Below are positions 18,382 to 54,017 of a stretch of 64,000 nt of DNA, one piece after another (the first letter of the stretch is position 1; every line of letters starts with the position of its first letter). The notes beneath the pieces are model-generated. The model searched no databases and was not told where the DNA came from. It was given only the letters and a program-made list of their open reading frames with translations. The stretch is from the sequence record PZ543597.1. The stretch is one strand, 5' to 3'. The DNA comes from a phage. A program made the position numbers and the translations under genes.

Positions 18382-18912
18382 ATGTCGCAAGCACTGCAAC
18401 AAATTTTTAACCAAGCAAATACAACTAACTTTGTAGTATCAATACCACATAGTAATACTACATCTGCTTTTACTTTAAATGCTCAGTCAGTTCCTATTCC
18501 AGGAATTAGGATACCTGTTACTGATACCGTGACTGGGCCGTTTGGACTAGGCAGAGCACAACGTCCAGGAGTTACATTTGAATACGATCCACTCATCGTG
18601 AGATTTATAGTTGACGAAGAGCTTAAGTCGTGGATAGGAATGTATGAATGGATGCTAGGAACTAGTAACTATCTTACAGGCGAAAATACTGCCCAAAAAA
18701 CAGGTCCTGAATACATTACGCTTTACATTTTAGATAATAGTAAAACTGAAATCGTGATGTCAATAAATTTTTATAAGCCTTGGGTTTCTGACCTGTCTGA
18801 AGTAGAATTTAGCTACACGGAAGATTCAGACCCAGCTTTAGTATGCACAGCAACGATTCCTTATACGTATTTTCAAGTAGAAAAAGATGGCAAAATTATA
18901 GCAGAAGTTTAA
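18382..18912 (+). CDS. 3: tail completion / sheath stabiliser gp3
   Basis: 176 aa from the internal ATG preceded by gaggaa; the track ORF starts 27 codons upstream without an RBS. Confidence 0.8.
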   Translation: MSQALQQIFNQANTTNFVVSIPHSNTTSAFTLNAQSVPIPGIRIPVTDTVTGPFGLGRAQRPGVTFEYDPLIVRFIVDEELKSWIGMYEWMLGTSNYLTGENTAQKTGPEYITLYILDNSKTEIVMSINFYKPWVSDLSEVEFSYTEDSDPALVCTATIPYTYFQVEKDGKIIAEV

Positions 18913-18961
18913 TGCTTCAGTTTCATGTGTTATAATCTTAACTAAATTTGAGGAGAAACAC

Positions 18962-19686
18962 ATGAAACTAATCTTTTTAAGTGGTGTAAAGCGTAGTGGA
19001 AAAGATACTACTGCAGATTTTATCATGAATAATTATTCTGCAGTTAAATATCAACTTGCTGGTCCTATTAAAGATGCATTGGCTTATGCATGGGGTGTAT
19101 TTGCAGCAAACACTGACTATCCTTGCTTAACTCGTAGAGAGTTTGAAGGAATTGACTATGATCGTGAGACTAATTTGAATTTGACTAAATTAGAAGTAAT
19201 TATGATTATGGAACAAGCATTTTGCTATCTTAATGGTAAAAGCCCAATTAAAGGTGTGTTTGTTTTTGATGACGAAGGAAAAGAATCAGTTAATTTCGTA
19301 GCATTTAACAAAATTACTGACGTTATAAATAATATTGAAGATCAATGGTCAGTCCGTCGTCTGATGCAAGCCCTAGGTACGGATTTGATTGTTAATAACT
19401 TCGACCGCATGTACTGGGTAAAATTATTTGCTTTAGATTATCTTGATAAATTTAACTCAGGTTATGATTATTATATCGTTCCTGATACCCGTCAAGATCA
19501 TGAAATGGATGCGGCTAGGGCGATGGGTGCTACAGTAATTCATGTAGTTCGTCCTGGTCAAAAATCCAATGATACACATATTACAGAAGCTGGATTGCCA
19601 ATTCGTGATGGCGATTTAGTAATTACAAACGATGGTTCTCTTGAAGAACTTTTTTCTAAAATTAAAAATACACTAAAGGTACTATA

Positions 19687-20385: not shown

Positions 20386-20414
20386 TTTACATAGGGTTTT
20401 AGTTGTGATACTAT
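20386..20414 (+). promoter_or_regulatory. T4-type early promoter (-35 TTTACA, 17-bp spacer, -10 TACTAT)
   Basis: Preceded by ttcacaaagttg; a 7-bp inverted repeat atagggt/accctat brackets the spacer and -10. Confidence 0.65.
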
Positions 20415-20448
20415 TACCCTATCAAAACAAAACCAAATGGAAATCAAA

Positions 20449-24677: not shown

Positions 24678-24810
24678 GGTATCTAGGCCTTTCTGGACCT
24701 CTCTAGGCATCATTTAGTTTCTACCCTTTATAATATATTATCCTATCCTTTAACTGCCCCTTCCCTCCCTAGAATTCCCTAAAACTTTTTAAAATTTTTT
24801 CACAAAACTG

Positions 24811-24839
24811 TTTACATCCCCGTTCTTCCATGGTACTAT
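24811..24839 (+). promoter_or_regulatory. T4-type early promoter
   Basis: A/T-rich upstream region with ttcacaaaactg, -35 TTTACA, 17-bp spacer, -10 TACTAT. Confidence 0.65.
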
Positions 24840-24883
24840 ACAACTATCAACTACTGATACAGAAAAACAACTTGGAGAATGAA

Positions 24884-25147
24884 ATGGATAATTACGGCGA
24901 ACTGTTCAACTTCTTTATGAAATGCGTTTCAGAAGATTTCGGTCGTACAGTGAATGATATTAAAGTTATCGGTCCTGATCATCCGATGTTTGAAACTTAC
25001 GCAGTAATGGGTAATGAAGACGGTCAGTGGTATACTGTAAAAGTTGTGATTAACATGTTCACAGCAGAAGGTTATGTTAAACTGTCTTCTAAAGTTTATC
25101 ATGACAACGACGAAATCGCAGAAGAATATTTCAATAATATGAAATAA
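24884..25147 (+). CDS. hypothetical acidic protein
   Basis: 87 aa from an ATG preceded by ggagaatgaa; the track ORF begins further upstream inside the promoter. Confidence 0.5.
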   Translation: MDNYGELFNFFMKCVSEDFGRTVNDIKVIGPDHPMFETYAVMGNEDGQWYTVKVVINMFTAEGYVKLSSKVYHDNDEIAEEYFNNMK

Positions 25148-28026: not shown

Positions 28027-28463
28027 AAACATTATCAGCTGGTATTATCTTTATGACAGAAGATAAAGATTTATTCATGGGACGGGTTACTGGTTCTCGT
28101 AAGCCTGGAATGATGGCACATCGCTGGGATATTCCAAAGGGCCGTGTAGAAAATTCTGATTTAAACGCACTAGATGCAGCACGAAGAGAATGTTTAGAAG
28201 AGACTGGTTTTAGCAATTATAATCCAGACCTTCTAGAAGACCTAGGTGTATTTAAATATTCTAGTAATAAAGACTTACAGTTATTTTATTATACGATTCC
28301 AGTAGAGCATGAGATGTTTAGAAATTGCCATTGCGAGTCTTATTTTGAAAATAAAGATGGTGTTATGATTCCAGAGATGGATGCTTTTGCTCTTATTCCT
28401 CGTACTCAGTGGCAATATGTGATGGGTCCTTCACTTTACCGAATAATGAACAGCCTCTTTTAA
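28023..28463 (+). CDS. nudE: Nudix hydrolase
   Basis: Nudix box GRVENSDLNALDAARRECLEETGF; ATGA overlap with the upstream gene; sits immediately upstream of e as T4 nudE (e.1) does. Confidence 0.8.
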   Translation: MKTLSAGIIFMTEDKDLFMGRVTGSRKPGMMAHRWDIPKGRVENSDLNALDAARRECLEETGFSNYNPDLLEDLGVFKYSSNKDLQLFYYTIPVEHEMFRNCHCESYFENKDGVMIPEMDAFALIPRTQWQYVMGPSLYRIMNSLF

Positions 28464-29266
<803 letters not shown>

Positions 29267-29270
29267 TGTT

Positions 29271-29299
29271 TACTTCCTCCAAGGACTTTGATACTATAC
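29271..29299 (+). promoter_or_regulatory. T4-type early promoter upstream of denV
   Basis: -35 TTTACT, 17-bp spacer, -10 TACTAT. Confidence 0.6.
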
Positions 29300-29324
29300 A
29301 TTCATCAACTACTTGGAGGAAATT

Positions 29325-29741
29325 ATGACTCGTATCAATTTAACACTTGTTTCTGAACTGACCGACCAACATCTTATGGCTGAGTATCGTGAATTGCCAC
29401 GTGTTTTTGGTATAGTTCGTAAGCATGTGGCAAACGGTAAGCGCGCTAAAGATTTTAAAATATCTTCTAAATTTATTTTAGGTTCTGGTCATGTTACTTT
29501 CTTTTACGATAAGTTAGAATTTTTGCGAAAGCGTCAATCGGACATTATAACGGAATGCTTAAAACGCGGGTTCAGTATAAAAGATACTGAAGTTCCTGAC
29601 ATCAGCGATATTCCAGTAGAATGGAAAAATGATTATAATCCATGCAAATCAGCTATTAAGTTGAGTCAACAACGACTCGATGAAAAAATTTTAATGAAGC
29701 CACACTGGTATAAGTATTACGGCAAAAATATTTACATTTAA
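29325..29741 (+). CDS. denV: endonuclease V (pyrimidine-dimer DNA glycosylase)
   Basis: 138 aa from [12 protein letters not shown]...; matches T4 EndoV as recalled; RBS ggagga. Confidence 0.95.
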
Positions 29742-31879: not shown

Positions 31880-31882
31880 CTG

Positions 31883-31911
31883 TTTACTTTTCCTCTTGAC
31901 TGTGGTATAAT
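31883..31911 (+). promoter_or_regulatory. T4-type early promoter upstream of regB
   Basis: -35 TTTACT, 17-bp spacer, TG-extended -10 TATAAT. Confidence 0.7.
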
Positions 31912-31938
31912 TTTTCTATCAGTTAAGAGGAGAATAAC

Positions 31939-32400
31939 ATGACTATCAACACAGAAGTTTTTATCCGTCGAAATAAGCTTCGTCGTCACTTTGAGTCGGA
32001 GTTTCGTCAAATTAACAATGAGATTCGTGAGGCATCAAAAGCAGCAGGGGTCTCATCGTTTCATCTAAAATATTCTCAGCATCTTCTTGATCGTGCAATT
32101 CAACGGGAGATTGATGAGACATATGTTTTTGAATTATTCCATAAAATAAAAGACCATGTTTTAGAAGTTAATGAATTCCTGAGTATGCCTCCGCGTCCTG
32201 ACATTGACGAGGATTTTATTGATGGGGTTGAATATCGTCCTGGGCGTTTAGAAATCACCGATGGAAATCTTTGGCTTGGATTTACAGTTTGTAAACCTAA
32301 TGCGAAGTTCAAAGACCCGTCACTTCAGTGCAGGATGGCAATTATCAATAGTCGTCGTTTACCAGGAAAGGCTTCTAAAGCAGTAATTAAAACTCAATGA
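31939..32400 (+). CDS. regB: RegB site-specific endoribonuclease
   Basis: 153-aa ORF MTINTEVFIRRNKLRRHFESEFRQINNEIREASK...; matches T4 RegB as recalled. Confidence 0.95.
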   Translation: MTINTEVFIRRNKLRRHFESEFRQINNEIREASKAAGVSSFHLKYSQHLLDRAIQREIDETYVFELFHKIKDHVLEVNEFLSMPPRPDIDEDFIDGVEYRPGRLEITDGNLWLGFTVCKPNAKFKDPSLQCRMAIINSRRLPGKASKAVIKTQ

Positions 32401-39624: not shown

Positions 39625-39626
39625 TA

Positions 39627-39652
39627 GGGAGCCTTCGGGCTCCCTTTTTTAT
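39627..39652 (+). terminator. intrinsic terminator
   Basis: gggagccttcgggctccc hairpin followed by tttttt. Confidence 0.75.
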
Positions 39653-39675
39653 TTCAAAAATTTTTCACAAAATTG

Positions 39676-39704
39676 TTTACAAGCATAAAGCTTTATGGTA
39701 CTAT
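39676..39704 (+). promoter_or_regulatory. T4-type early promoter
   Basis: ttcacaaaattg upstream, -35 TTTACA, 17-bp spacer containing the palindrome ataaagctttat, -10 TACTAT. Confidence 0.65.
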
Positions 39705-40151: not shown

Positions 40152-40155
40152 ATTG

Positions 40156-40184
40156 TTTACAGAAGGGTAGTAGTGTGATACTAT
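40156..40184 (+). promoter_or_regulatory. T4-type early promoter with embedded inverted repeat
   Basis: -35 TTTACA, 17-bp spacer, -10 TACTAT; 27-nt tract gtgatactattaccctatcaaaacaaa is identical to 20405-20431. Confidence 0.65.
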
Positions 40185-40220
40185 TACCCTATCAAAACAA
40201 ATGTGAGATTGGAGAATAAA

Positions 40221-41189
40221 ATGAAAACTGTAACTATCAATAAGGGTATCTACTTCGGTAAAGAAATCTCTGGAACTTTTGAGCTCTTAGGTGAATGGTT
40301 CCCAGATAATGCTCCGGTAGATGCACAAGGAGATGGTAAAGTTTTTGTTGAAATTGACGGTAAGCGTCGCGGTGTTTGGGTTTACAAATCAGACATTTCA
40401 TATGATGGTGTAAAAGTTGAAGAAGTTAAAGAATCATATGAAGATATGAAAACCCGCATTAATAAAAGATTTAATGTTATGGGAATGATGACGAATGGTA
40501 TTATTAATGGAAATATTCGTTCATTAATTATCTCTGGCGCAGCAGGTATTGGTAAAACGTATTCTTTAGATAAAGCTTTAAATAAAGCAAATGATATTGG
40601 ATACATTGAATATAAAAGCATTAATGGTAAAATCTCTGGTATTGGTCTTTATGAGCAGCTTTGGAATAATCGTGAAGAGAATTCTGTCCTTTTGATTGAT
40701 GATGTGGATGTTTTCTCTGATATGGACATTCTTAATCTTCTGAAAGCTGCTCTGGACACTGGAGAGACCCGTAAAGTCTGCTGGAGCACCGCATCTTCTT
40801 ACTTAGAAGAAAAAGGCATTGAGCGTGAGTTTGAATTTAAAGGAACGATTGTTTTTATCACAAACGTTGACATTGACCGCGAATTAGACCGTGGTACTAA
40901 ACTTGCTCCACATTTACAAGCATTAGTGTCCCGCTCGGTTTATTTGGATTTGGGTGTTCACACTAATGAAGAAATTATGGTCAGGGTTGAAGATGTTATT
41001 CTTTCAACTGACATGATGCAAAAGCGCGGTCTTTCTGATGAAGAAACTTATAAAGCATTATCATGGATGAAAGTTAATGTTAATCGTTTACGCAATGTTT
41101 CACTGCGTACTGCTCTTTATCTTGCTGACTTTATTATGACCGACAAAAACGGTTGGGAAGAAATTGCTGAGGTTACTCTTCTGAAATAA
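40221..41189 (+). CDS. AAA-type P-loop ATPase
   Basis: 322 aa from ATG 40221; Walker A GAAGIGKT and Walker B LLIDDVD. Confidence 0.6.
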   Translation: MKTVTINKGIYFGKEISGTFELLGEWFPDNAPVDAQGDGKVFVEIDGKRRGVWVYKSDISYDGVKVEEVKESYEDMKTRINKRFNVMGMMTNGIINGNIRSLIISGAAGIGKTYSLDKALNKANDIGYIEYKSINGKISGIGLYEQLWNNREENSVLLIDDVDVFSDMDILNLLKAALDTGETRKVCWSTASSYLEEKGIEREFEFKGTIVFITNVDIDRELDRGTKLAPHLQALVSRSVYLDLGVHTNEEIMVRVEDVILSTDMMQKRGLSDEETYKALSWMKVNVNRLRNVSLRTALYLADFIMTDKNGWEEIAEVTLLK

Positions 41190-41278: not shown

Positions 41279-41593
41279 ATGGAGGTAATGATGTTATACT
41301 CAAAGGCTCGTGAAATTTACGAAACTAAAATTAAAGAAGCAGTATTTAAGTTCGCAACGACAATGCGATGGACAAATGACTGGGAGTATTCAAAAAATCA
41401 TAAGAAGCCCATGGTGACAAGAAAGGCTCATATGTTAGTGTTAATAGACCGTGAGCAGATTAAAGCCCGAGAAGCCCTCCAGAATCACAAAAAGGCTGCC
41501 TTTGAATGGTTTATGGATAACACTGCTCCTGAGACCAAGAAAGCGGTAAGTGCATGGTTCAGTGGAAAAAATTGTGAAAGAAGTTTCTTTTAG
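41279..41593 (+). CDS. hypothetical protein
   Basis: 104-aa ORF; start ambiguous between ATG 41279 and ATGs 9-12 nt downstream. Confidence 0.45.
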   Translation: MEVMMLYSKAREIYETKIKEAVFKFATTMRWTNDWEYSKNHKKPMVTRKAHMLVLIDREQIKAREALQNHKKAAFEWFMDNTAPETKKAVSAWFSGKNCERSFF

Positions 41594-41596
41594 TGG

Positions 41597-41625
41597 TTTA
41601 CAAGACTGTTCCTCTGTGGTATTAT
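41597..41625 (+). promoter_or_regulatory. T4-type early promoter inside an RBS-sequestering stem-loop
   Basis: -35 TTTACA, 17-bp spacer, -10 TATTAT; 9-bp arms ctgttcctc (41606-41614) and gaggaacag (41642-41650), the latter being the RBS of the gene at 41654. Confidence 0.6.
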
Positions 41626-41653
41626 TACCCTATCAACTACGGAGGAACAGAAA

Positions 41654-42181
41654 ATGAACGCTAAAGATATTTTCAACTTAGTAAATTATAACGATGGTAA
41701 ATTTAAATCTGAAGCACAAAGCAAGTTCTTTAATGACATCTCAATCGGAGGTGAAATCACGGTTGATGGAGGACAAATTTACAAATCCCGTTGGAATTGG
41801 ATCGTTATTATCGATGAGATTGGTATTGTAGAAATTTACAAGAATACGAATAAAAATCGTACATTACACTGGTCTCGTGATACTAATGAACAGTACAAAA
41901 AGGATAAAGCATCTAAATTATCTCGTGTAACTCAAGAAGATATTGAGTTCATCAAGAAAGATATTTTGATGTATGATAACTTAATTGCTGAAGAGCAAGC
42001 TGTTATTGATAAATTTGATGAGATTAAAGCTTCTCGTGAAATTCCTGATTTTATGAAAGAATCAGTAAATGAACGATACACTCTCATTTCAGAGCGTATT
42101 GAAACTTACAAAAAGCAAAGAGCTGAACGCCAAAATACTCTTCGGAAGTTTGAAGAACGGTTAAAGACGGTACTCGCATAA
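41654..42181 (+). CDS. hypothetical protein
   Basis: 175-aa ORF with RBS ggaggaacag; C-terminal coiled-coil character. Confidence 0.55.
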   Translation: MNAKDIFNLVNYNDGKFKSEAQSKFFNDISIGGEITVDGGQIYKSRWNWIVIIDEIGIVEIYKNTNKNRTLHWSRDTNEQYKKDKASKLSRVTQEDIEFIKKDILMYDNLIAEEQAVIDKFDEIKASREIPDFMKESVNERYTLISERIETYKKQRAERQNTLRKFEERLKTVLA

Positions 42182-48717: not shown

Positions 48718-48759
48718 AAATAATAAATACCCTTATCTATTTAAGGTAAGGGTTTTATT

Positions 48760-49233
48760 ATGTTATTGACTGGCAAATTATATAAAGAAGAAAAACAGAA
48801 ATTTTATGATGCGCAAAACGGTAAATGCTTAATTTGCCAACGAGAACTAAATCCTGATGTTCAAGCTAATCATCTTGATCATGACCATGAATTAAATGGA
48901 CCAAAAGCAGGAAAGGTACGTGGATTGCTTTGTAATCTATGCAATGCCGCAGAAGGTCAAATGAAGCATAAATTTAATCGTTCTGGCTTAAAGGGACAAG
49001 GTGTTGATTATCTTGAATGGTTAGAAAATTTACTTACTTATTTAAAATCCGATTACACCCAAAATAATATTCACCCTAACTTTGTTGGAGATAAATCAAA
49101 GGAATTTTCTCGTTTAGGAAAAGAGGAAATGATGGCCGAGATGCTTCAAAGAGGATTTGAATATAATGAATCTGACACTAAAACACAATTAATAGCTTCA
49201 TTTAAGAAGCAGCTTAGAAAGAGTTTAAAATGA
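48760..49233 (+). CDS. 49: endonuclease VII (Holliday-junction resolvase)
   Basis: 157-aa ORF MLLTGKLYKEEKQKFYDAQNGKCLICQREL...; matches T4 gp49 as recalled. Confidence 0.95.
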   Translation: MLLTGKLYKEEKQKFYDAQNGKCLICQRELNPDVQANHLDHDHELNGPKAGKVRGLLCNLCNAAEGQMKHKFNRSGLKGQGVDYLEWLENLLTYLKSDYTQNNIHPNFVGDKSKEFSRLGKEEMMAEMLQRGFEYNESDTKTQLIASFKKQLRKSLK

Positions 49234-53219: not shown

Positions 53220-53420
53220 ATGAATCCTGAATCTAAATTATCGCAGCGAATTGCTGAAGAACGTGCCAAATTTTTCCAGAACATGAAATACAATGGTATT
53301 GAGGATGAAGTTTTTCTAAATTGGTTCTGGAATAATAAGTATGCAGCATGTGAAGGAGCTTTGTCATTGTCAGTCGCAATGATGTACGAAGGCTGGAAGG
53401 GTGCCAAACAGTTTAGCTAA
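53220..53420 (+). CDS. hypothetical small protein
   Basis: 66-aa ORF followed by a terminator hairpin. Confidence 0.5.
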   Translation: MNPESKLSQRIAEERAKFFQNMKYNGIEDEVFLNWFWNNKYAACEGALSLSVAMMYEGWKGAKQFS

Positions 53421-53439
53421 GGGCTTCGGCCCTTTTTTG
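53420..53439 (+). terminator. intrinsic terminator
   Basis: agggcttcggccct hairpin followed by tttttt. Confidence 0.8.
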
Positions 53440-53472
53440 GATAATAAATTTTAATGCAATTGAGGATAATGT

Positions 53473-53799
53473 ATGACTATTCAAATTAAAAACGCCATCA
53501 ATTCTTACGCATATGATAAAGTAGTTTCTCTGCTAGAAAAAGGCGATATTGTAACTCCTCAAATTTTGGATAAATGGGAAAAAGAGCTTCATCAGACGAT
53601 GAAACAGAATGATCAGAAAATTGGACGCAATACTGTCCGTGAATTGTTAGTTCAATATATCTTGTCAGAATTTGATGTTAAAGCTTTTGGTGTAGAATCT
53701 AAAGCTTATCAAAAACATGAAATTTCCGATAAAACTATTCGTCGTATGAAAAATCAACGCAAGAAAAAATTTGCTGACCTGAAAATTACTAAGGCATAA
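53473..53799 (+). CDS. hypothetical protein
   Basis: 108-aa ORF with RBS tgaggataat. Confidence 0.5.
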   Translation: MTIQIKNAINSYAYDKVVSLLEKGDIVTPQILDKWEKELHQTMKQNDQKIGRNTVRELLVQYILSEFDVKAFGVESKAYQKHEISDKTIRRMKNQRKKKFADLKITKA

Positions 53800-53801
53800 T
53801 T

Positions 53802-54017
53802 ATGAACGAAGCTCTTATTAACGATTTACGTCTTGCCGGATATGAAGTAAATACAAACGGCAGTGGTTTAACTCAAATTGAAGGAAATGGGTTCATCCTT
53901 GAGTATGAATTTAGCCAATGGTGGTTATATGCTAATTACGGCAAACTGATTGAATATGTTGACCAATTTGATTCACTAGATGCAGCTCTTGAAGCGGCTA
54001 AGTTGATGAATGCATGA
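53802..54017 (+). CDS. hypothetical small protein
   Basis: 71-aa ORF. Confidence 0.45.
   Translation: MNEALINDLRLAGYEVNTNGSGLTQIEGNGFILEYEFSQWWLYANYGKLIEYVDQFDSLDAALEAAKLMNA

Follow-up and report, generated by a model that had tools for sequence, protein, structure and literature searches.

Translation of the genes e, soc, 49 and I-TevI of bacteriophage T4 is controlled by established inhibitory leader helices with an internal promoter, and in the case of e the helix lowers translation about 100-fold (Uzan & Miller 2010, PMC3014915). The internal promoter of these genes is a late one (gp55, TATAAATA), which delays their translation to late infection. Stem-loops are also part of the so-called PeSL cassettes, which are intergenic and consist of a strong early promoter, a stem-loop, and the Shine-Dalgarno sequence (SD) and ATG of the next gene (Arbiol 2010, PMC2839356; Comeau 2014, PMC4122927). 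The five described PeSL subclasses end before the transcription start, none has been described to pair with the SD, and their stem-loops have been read as terminators or attenuators, and also as points of recombination. The element described here lies in a stretch of 64,000 nucleotides of phage DNA (sequence record PZ543597.1, in the following "the window"), between the genes nrdC.9 and nrdC.8. It is a putative composite cis-regulatory cassette in which a strong early promoter of the sigma-70 type lies within an RNA hairpin, the 3' arm of which contains the SD of nrdC.8. The element thereby extends the classical masking of ribosome-binding sites (RBS) to early, and probably also to middle promoters, and links it to PeSL cassettes and to the nuclease RegB, although the principle as such is unsurprising to a T4 specialist.

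The initial annotation had noted that ctgttcctc (41606-41614) is perfectly complementary to gaggaacag (41642-41650), regarded as the RBS of the gene at 41654, and that the -10 element TATTAT of a canonical early promoter (41620-41625) is in the loop. All these coordinates proved to be correct, and the assignment of the RBS is borne out by the GGAGG at 41641-41645 and the ATG at 41654. The full stem is longer and has 15 pairs, 13 of them Watson-Crick and two G·U; the hairpin alone has a free energy of -22.1 kcal/mol, and its 81-nt context reaches -28.5 kcal/mol (z = -5.98), with none of 200 dinucleotide shuffles folding as well. The placement of the -10 element holds for its last five nucleotides, ATTAT, which are in the loop, but the first T belongs to the stem as its last pair. 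On the other strand, A·C mismatches would stand in place of the two G·U pairs, and the helix is therefore specific to the sense RNA. The minimum free energy (MFE) structure also has a weak outer helix, in which the stop-codon region of nrdC.9 pairs with the first codons of nrdC.8 and with UG of its AUG; this helix is less conserved, and T4 has a G-to-T change in it. A search of Rfam 15 gave no match at the gathering score and only chance-level matches, the best of them to potC (20.5 bits versus a gathering score of 44, E = 0.23).

The promoter (GTTTACA-N14-TGG-TATTAT, 41596-41625, with TTTACA at 41597-41602, a 17-nt spacer, and TG at -15/-14) is intergenic and fits exactly the early-promoter consensus TTTACW-N17-TAYWAT of PST/T4 (Comeau 2014, PMC4122927). 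As a loose sigma-70 scan of the window found 23 sites versus 18.5 expected, which is the chance level in AT-rich DNA, the stringent early-promoter motif GTTTACW-N14-TGN-TAYWAT was tested. This motif occurs 12 times in the 64 kb, where 0.01 matches are expected; all 12 are on the + strand, each precedes an open reading frame (ORF), and the nrdC.8 promoter is among them. It is no chance match, and its description as a canonical early promoter was right. From the usual spacing between -10 and start, transcription is predicted to begin at about A41632, 7 nt past the -10 element and within the loop. Irrespective of where exactly transcription starts, the 5' arm is upstream of the -10 element and therefore absent from the promoter's own transcript, and RNA beginning at about A41632 shows no significant structure (-4.4 kcal/mol, z = +1.3).

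How strongly the RBS is masked was expressed as opening cost, which is the free energy needed to free the region from -15 to +5, relative to the start codon, of all pairing within a context from -70 to +30. The opening cost replaced the paired probability of the SD as measure, because the latter discriminated the transcript classes poorly due to weak alternative pairings in the short RNA. It was computed for 162 candidate ORF starts on both strands, which have a median of 5.8 kcal/mol. In read-through RNA, the RBS of nrdC.8 has an opening cost of 21.6 kcal/mol and ranks first of the 162, whereas in RNA from the predicted +1 the cost is 2.3 kcal/mol, and the difference between the two transcripts, 19.2 kcal/mol, is the largest among the 15 early-promoter cassettes of the window. 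The proposed masking in read-through RNA and opening in promoter-initiated RNA is thus supported by the computed energies, and the geometry is as had been claimed. Two of the established cases are present in the window as positive controls, with identities confirmed by Pfam: the hairpin of gene e (28462-28505 +, at 28500) has -15.2 kcal/mol and that of gene 49 (48719-48765 +, at 48760) has -17.7 kcal/mol, and each contains a late promoter of the TATAAATA type. With opening costs of 18.2 and 18.0 kcal/mol they rank third and fourth of the 162, and the measure therefore recovers known biology. To estimate chance, only the first 14 nt of the spacer were shuffled, which keeps the composition and every promoter element. 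The observed masking of nrdC.8 was reached by 0 of 1000 shuffles for the window (null 6.8 ± 2.2 kcal/mol), by 0 of 1000 for T4, and by 1 of 1000 for the Dhakavirus leader described below. The hairpin between promoter and SD is real and far beyond chance.

Table 1. Coordinates of the nrdC.8 cassette, the flanking genes and the upstream early promoters in the window.
Feature	Position	Strand	Basis
-35 element GTTTACA of the early promoter	41596..41602	+	promoter scan; stringent motif
17-nt promoter spacer with the larger part of the 5' arm and with the TGn extended -10 (TG 41617-41618)	41603..41619	+	
-10 element TATTAT	41620..41625	+	promoter scan
5' arm CTGTTCCTCTGTGGT, anti-SD strand	41606..41620	+	fold
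Loop, 15 nt, with -10, discriminator and predicted start	41621..41635	+	fold
3' arm ACTACGGAGGAACAG, containing the Shine-Dalgarno sequence	41636..41650	+	fold
Shine-Dalgarno GGAGG, 8 nt 5' of the AUG; GGAG 41641-41644 is the RegB motif	41641..41645	+	sequence
Weak outer helix	41590-41600 with 41655-41664	+	MFE structure
nrdC.8, 175 aa, putatively regulated gene, ATG 41654	41654..42181	+	ORF list
nrdC.9, upstream gene	41279..41593	+	ORF list; annotated nrdC.9 in vB_SsoM_113 and T4; Pfam DUF7203
Upstream early promoter, putative read-through source	39675..39704	+	stringent motif
Upstream early promoter preceding nrdC.10, putative read-through source	40155..40184	+	stringent motif

The window is a segment of a Tequatrovirus (T4-like) genome with 100% identity to Escherichia phage ECO07P4 (1.9 kb tested), and its + strand corresponds to the early-transcribed (counter-clockwise) strand of T4. 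The regulated gene is the orthologue of T4 nrdC.8 (T4 53358-53885, complement). It had been called uncharacterised, and this is still adequate, as it belongs to PHROG 2274 with the entry "unknown function" and a Pfam search gave no match. All 742 records of the protein come from Tequatro-, Mosig- and Dhakavirus-like phages. The nrdC.8 leaders that were recovered from the phage collection, IMG/VR and metagenomes are of three types with mutually unrelated spacers but conserved flanks, namely GTTTACA, TAYTAT, CTATCAACTAC, GGAGG and ATGAACGC. A wider search for orthologues, by protein and DNA pattern in IMG/VR and by a metagenome scan, gave only the same three types and a few point variants. In the Tequatrovirus type, about 11-13 of the 15 pairs are invariant; in T4, 13 pairs remain (-19.4 kcal/mol), and in one metagenomic variant a G-C pair is changed to G·U. 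In the Dhakavirus type, TCTCCAGTAG, which directly follows the -35 element, pairs with CTACTGGAGG, and thus the SD is still buried by another sequence in another register, with an opening cost of 19.5 kcal/mol versus a null of 9.0 ± 1.8. In Mosigvirus and one unclassified phage, the spacer sequence AGGTCTAT pairs with ATAGACCT just past the -10 element, and the hairpin encloses the -10. Judged from these leaders, the SD of nrdC.8 appears to be masked in two of the three genera by different means, and masking appears to be dispensable in the third. In the window, the -10 and discriminator TATTATTACCC (41620-41631) differ from the T4 sequence TACTATACAAC at five positions, while both arms are unchanged, and the discriminator and start region TTACCCTATC matches other promoters of the window (20400-20420 and 40170-40190). 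Like the unrelated spacers of the three leader types, this is suggestive of a sequence exchange between promoter cassettes, as expected if PeSL cassettes are points of recombination, but does not prove it.

The same design is found at other promoters of the window. Three of the 15 early-promoter cassettes, those of nrdC.8, regB and denV, have a spacer with significant complementarity to the SD of the gene that follows; one is marginal, four have spacers that pair with the +1 region, and seven are without structure. At regB (31882-31941 +; Pfam REGB_T4), the promoter is GTTTACT-N17-TATAAT, and the 5' arm TTTTCCTCTTGACTG in the spacer (31888-31902) pairs with the SD region CAGTTAAGAGGAGAA (31920-31934). 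The opening cost is 19-20 kcal/mol, which is rank 2 of 162, and 0 of 400 spacer shuffles reach it. Mosigvirus (TTCTCCTCTAGTTG / CAACTAGAGGAGAA) and Winklervirus (ATCCTCATTTGTT / AACAAATGAGGAT) retain this pairing, and 4 of 14 pairs have changes on both sides across the genera. Stem-loops in front of regB and other ORFs are reported to have been noted already in a 1986 sequencing paper on the 58-65 kb region of T4. At denV (29268-29327 +; endonuclease V, Pfam Pyr_excise), the spacer sequence TTCCTCCAAG (29274-29283) pairs with CTTGGAGGAA (29312-29321), and again none of 400 spacer shuffles reach the observed masking in the window. In seven denV leaders, three from Tequatrovirus and one each from Dhaka-, Karam-, Marfa- and Bragavirus, the SD is paired with a 5' arm, which by reading of the sequences would be upstream of the predicted start in all seven. 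In Tequatro- and Dhakavirus the spacer contains the arm, and in Karam-, Marfa- and Bragavirus the arm is over the -10 and discriminator. The shuffle test clearly supports masking in the three Tequatrovirus leaders and the Dhakavirus leader (0-6 of 300), and gives no support for Marfavirus (66 of 300 spacer shuffles); in Karam- and Bragavirus the arm is outside the shuffled spacer. The marginal case is the early promoter at 24811 (region 24810-24886 +), which precedes a gene of 87 aa starting at 24884 (PHROG 2678, unknown function) and has an opening cost of 10.0 versus a null of 5.8 kcal/mol, with 12 of 400 shuffles reaching 10.0. The spacers of the promoters at about 20386, about 20684, 25149 and about 40156 (all +) are complementary to the stretch that immediately follows the -10 element of the same promoter (e.g. 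TAGATAGGGTA / TACCCTATCTA), which places the -10 in the loop and leaves the SD free (0-1 of 400 shuffles), and these hairpins look like PeSL stem-loops.

Also a middle promoter shows a related arrangement. Gene 1 (dNMP kinase, Pfam DNMK; 18910-18968 +) is preceded by the promoter known as P1 in T4, with the MotA box TAATGCTTCA at 18910-18919 and TATAAT at 18931-18936, and its spacer sequence GTTTCATGTGTT is complementary to AACACATGAAAC over the AUG, with an opening cost of 16.5 kcal/mol (rank 6 of 162). Sequence, stability and geometry of the nrdC.8 element, its statistical excess and the recurrence of the design across genera and genes are direct observations, and the strongest argument for the masking being selected and not accidental is that the design is recurrent and that the arms vary while the target stays the RBS.

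The function that we consider most likely, with a probability of about 60%, is a translational insulation, by which nrdC.8 would be translated only from the transcript of its own early promoter. RNA that reads through from the early promoters at 39675 and 40155, and in T4 possibly also from the middle promoter PmobD, would contain both arms; its 15-bp helix would bury the GGAGG, and the weaker outer helix would cover the AUG. 30S subunits would be blocked from nrdC.8 on such RNA, while RNA polymerase would still reach nrdC.7 and the genes beyond. The hairpin is local and would form in the long RNAs once the 3' arm has been synthesised, and its predicted stability is higher than that of the e hairpin. 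RNA from the nrdC.8 promoter would start at about 41632 without the 5' arm, have an open leader of 22 nt, and thus be translated. T4 early promoters are shut off 2-3 min after infection, and therefore NrdC.8 would be expected to be made in an immediate-early pulse, to which upstream transcription would add nothing. The GGAG would be exposed and cleavable by RegB in the short transcript and paired and protected in the long ones. From the sequence and its computed folding, we infer where transcription starts, that the helix forms in vivo, and how translation is affected. Ribosomes that terminate at nrdC.9 would disrupt the outer helix and leave the main stem closed. A translational coupling from nrdC.9 was considered as well and is unlikely for the main stem, because the nrdC.9 stop codon (TAG, 41591-41593) ends 12 nt 5' of the 5' arm and is 60 nt away from the AUG; coupling is possible for the outer helix and for the Mosigvirus arrangement.

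Data from T4 agree with translational insulation but do not discriminate strictly. Read densities in T4 RNA-seq at the sampled time are 1.6 reads/nt for nrdC.10, 2.3 for nrdC.9, 3.9 for nrdC.8 and 8.0 for nrdC.7, and this rise fits a promoter between nrdC.9 and nrdC.8 plus a sizeable read-through, although differences in RNA stability could contribute. No terminator-like site was detected by the terminator scan of the + strand between the promoter at 39675 and position 41597. Of the described middle promoters of T4, PmobD is upstream of nrdC.8 and PnrdC.7 just downstream of it, and the GenBank and RefSeq records of T4 have no promoter features annotated at nrdC.8; a genome-wide T4 start-site data set was not found in the literature search. 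T4 nrdC.8 is classed as early at the RNA and the protein level, which is compatible with the model and non-discriminating.

The initial annotation had suggested the same logic as at e, and this applies to the geometry: like in the case of e, soc, 49 and I-TevI, RNA initiated upstream holds the SD and/or AUG in a stable local helix, and the predicted transcript of the internal promoter starts between the arms and lacks the 5' strand. It does not apply to the timing, as the internal promoter of nrdC.8 is an early sigma-70 promoter, and no late-promoter motif TATAAATA is present in 41590-41654. The device therefore cannot delay expression but could only tie translation to the gene's own promoter; as both nrdC.8 transcript classes would be made from the first minutes on, it would do no more than restrict translation to a promoter that is itself short-lived. 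Because the defining late promoter is absent, nrdC.8 is not a plain member of the e/soc/49/I-TevI class. The 2010 review on T4 (PMC3014915) lists e, soc, 49, I-TevI, mobE and segB in this context and does not list nrdC.8, regB or denV, but an earlier notice is possible. The hairpins of the homing-endonuclease genes, shown for mobE of Aeh1 and implicated for segB of T4, likewise sequester the RBS of a dispensable phage gene, but an early promoter between the arms, as found at nrdC.8, is not described for them in that review.

The likeness to PeSL cassettes is close: the early promoter fits the consensus, the stem-loop overlaps the -10 element, the cassette ends in the SD GGAGG and the ATG, and it is found in a hyperplastic region rich in small ORFs of unknown function. 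In contrast to the described PeSL stem-loops, the stem-loop of nrdC.8 extends beyond the predicted transcription start, the 3' arm is the SD itself, and the predicted effect is translational, so that transcription can continue. With RegB targets the nrdC.8 leader shares an SD with GGAG followed by an A-rich stretch. Efficient RegB sites consist of an unstructured GGAG followed by seven A-rich nucleotides without C (GGAGAAUAAAA), and the GGAG of T4 nrdC.8 has been found to be "moderately cleaved" in vivo (Durand 2006, PMC1702504). The corresponding region of the window, GGAGGAACAGA, has a C at position 8 (in T4 also at position 10) and is structured in long RNAs. Whereas a RegB target is as such a site for a nuclease acting in trans, the nrdC.8 hairpin would make this site conditional on the transcript class. 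A mixture of open short and closed long RNA is consistent with the moderate cleavage in T4, which is not decisive, as the C residues explain it equally well.

Several points weigh against the proposed insulation. The bottom pairs C41606-G41650 and T41607-A41649 of the window are unpaired in most Tequatrovirus variants including T4, and the T2 stem has an internal C·U mismatch within the SD and only -12.8 kcal/mol. Among the nine distinct leader variants within Tequatrovirus, there is no change on both sides of a pair, and shuffles are indistinguishable from the observed pattern; the within-genus data therefore speak neither for nor against the structure, and a low divergence could be sufficient to explain the conservation within the genus. 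In Mosigvirus, the SD of nrdC.8 is left free (opening cost 6.1 versus a null of 8.0 kcal/mol), and masking is therefore not indispensable for this gene. The four promoters whose hairpins leave the SD free imply that some other selective force also builds promoter hairpins. Furthermore, ribosomes that terminate at nrdC.9, 12 nt before the stem, could fray the base of the stem, and the C residues after the GGAG depart from the GGAGAAUAAAA optimum and alone predict a weak RegB cleavage. A 5'-end mapping or a translation measurement for the nrdC.8 promoter was not found in the literature, which mentions nrdC.8 only in passing.

It has thus to be asked whether the hairpin could serve something else than translation. 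An attenuator or terminator of the PeSL type, which acts on upstream transcription only and overlaps with the SD incidentally, is an unlikely explanation. It would agree with the PeSL stem-loops that have been described between the -35 and -10 elements or overlapping the -10 of early promoters (RB49/phi1, PST/T4), one of which, from RB49, cut lacZ expression as much as rrnB T1, and also with the SD-free hairpins at the four promoters mentioned above and at Mosigvirus nrdC.8. However, the stem of the window is followed by GAAAAUGAAC and not by a U-tract, the terminator scan made no call at this site, and the T4 read density rises across the element, which is confounded by the promoter itself. 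Moreover, the 3' arm lands on the SD at nrdC.8 in two genera, at regB in three genera and at denV despite differing arms, and such a repeated positioning with differing arm sequences is not predicted by the need for any hairpin. An intrinsic (Rho-independent) terminator was rejected, as there is no U-run but GAAAAUGAAC after the stem and no match in the scan. A shielding of the GGAG from RegB in polycistronic RNA, by which the downstream genes would stay expressed, is plausible and compatible with translational insulation; as the principal role, with translation control being secondary, it is improbable. Structure is known to inhibit RegB, 16 GGAG sites within structures resist cleavage, and that of T4 nrdC.8 is cut only to a moderate extent, but besides the C residues it speaks against such a shield that the same architecture is found at regB, the SD of which is efficiently cut, and at the denV leaders, where the SD is not always GGAG.

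We regard it as similarly improbable that the complementarity is a by-product without function, either left over from cassette recombination or arising where a pyrimidine-rich spacer meets a purine-rich SD. The lack of covariation within Tequatrovirus, the frayed stem base, the apparent exchange of the loop in the window variant with loops of other promoters, and the absence of SD masking in Mosigvirus would be in accord with a by-product. But spacer shuffles that preserve the composition reach the masking in only 0-1 of 1000 cases, the opening cost of nrdC.8 is the highest among 162 starts, Dhakavirus re-creates the masking independently, and regB has compensatory changes. An element that functions as DNA, either as operator for a dimeric protein or as promoter-modulating cruciform, would explain why a perfect 9-bp inverted repeat flanks the -10, and yet such a function is very improbable: the two G·U pairs are A·C mismatches in DNA or on the other strand, arm sequences and spacing differ completely between the genera although their RNAs still pair with the SD, and an operator would not typically have a centre-to-centre distance of 36 bp.

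If translational insulation is true, phages of the T4 type uncouple translation from transcription for selected early genes, and this would explain how their dense array of strong early promoters avoids a cumulative over-expression. It would also explain how proteins such as RegB, the synthesis of which reportedly needs tight control, can be limited to the first minutes, and promoter-embedded stem-loops, which so far have been read as terminators, would obtain a concrete function. Such a regulation may help to interpret the disagreement between RNA and protein timing for some T4 genes, and a promoter spacer that encodes an anti-SD would be a compact and portable design for the engineering of synthetic phages and operons. 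More tentatively, and with the odds somewhat against it, there could be a general code of anti-RBS sequences in promoters of T-even-type phages that is used by some of the early, middle and late promoters, which would have a complement to the SD or AUG of the following gene in the spacer or in the -10 and discriminator region; candidates in the window are the early genes nrdC.8, regB and denV, the middle gene 1, and the late genes e and 49. Each of these genes would then be translated only from the transcript of its own promoter and be silent on read-through RNA, early promoters would give an immediate-early pulse that is enforced jointly by promoter shut-off and RegB cleavage, and PeSL cassettes would gain a translational function that has so far not been described.

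Two further observations concern the region upstream of nrdC.9. Directly 5' of the early promoter at 39675, a terminator-like CUUCGG-tetraloop hairpin, AGGGAGCCTTCGGGCTCCCT, is followed by TTTTTATTT (39626-39645 +). The nrdC.10 orthologue (40221-41186 +) has only sub-threshold Pfam matches to AAA/STAND NTPase families (AAA_14, nSTAND3), and it carries the Walker A motif GAAGIGKT.

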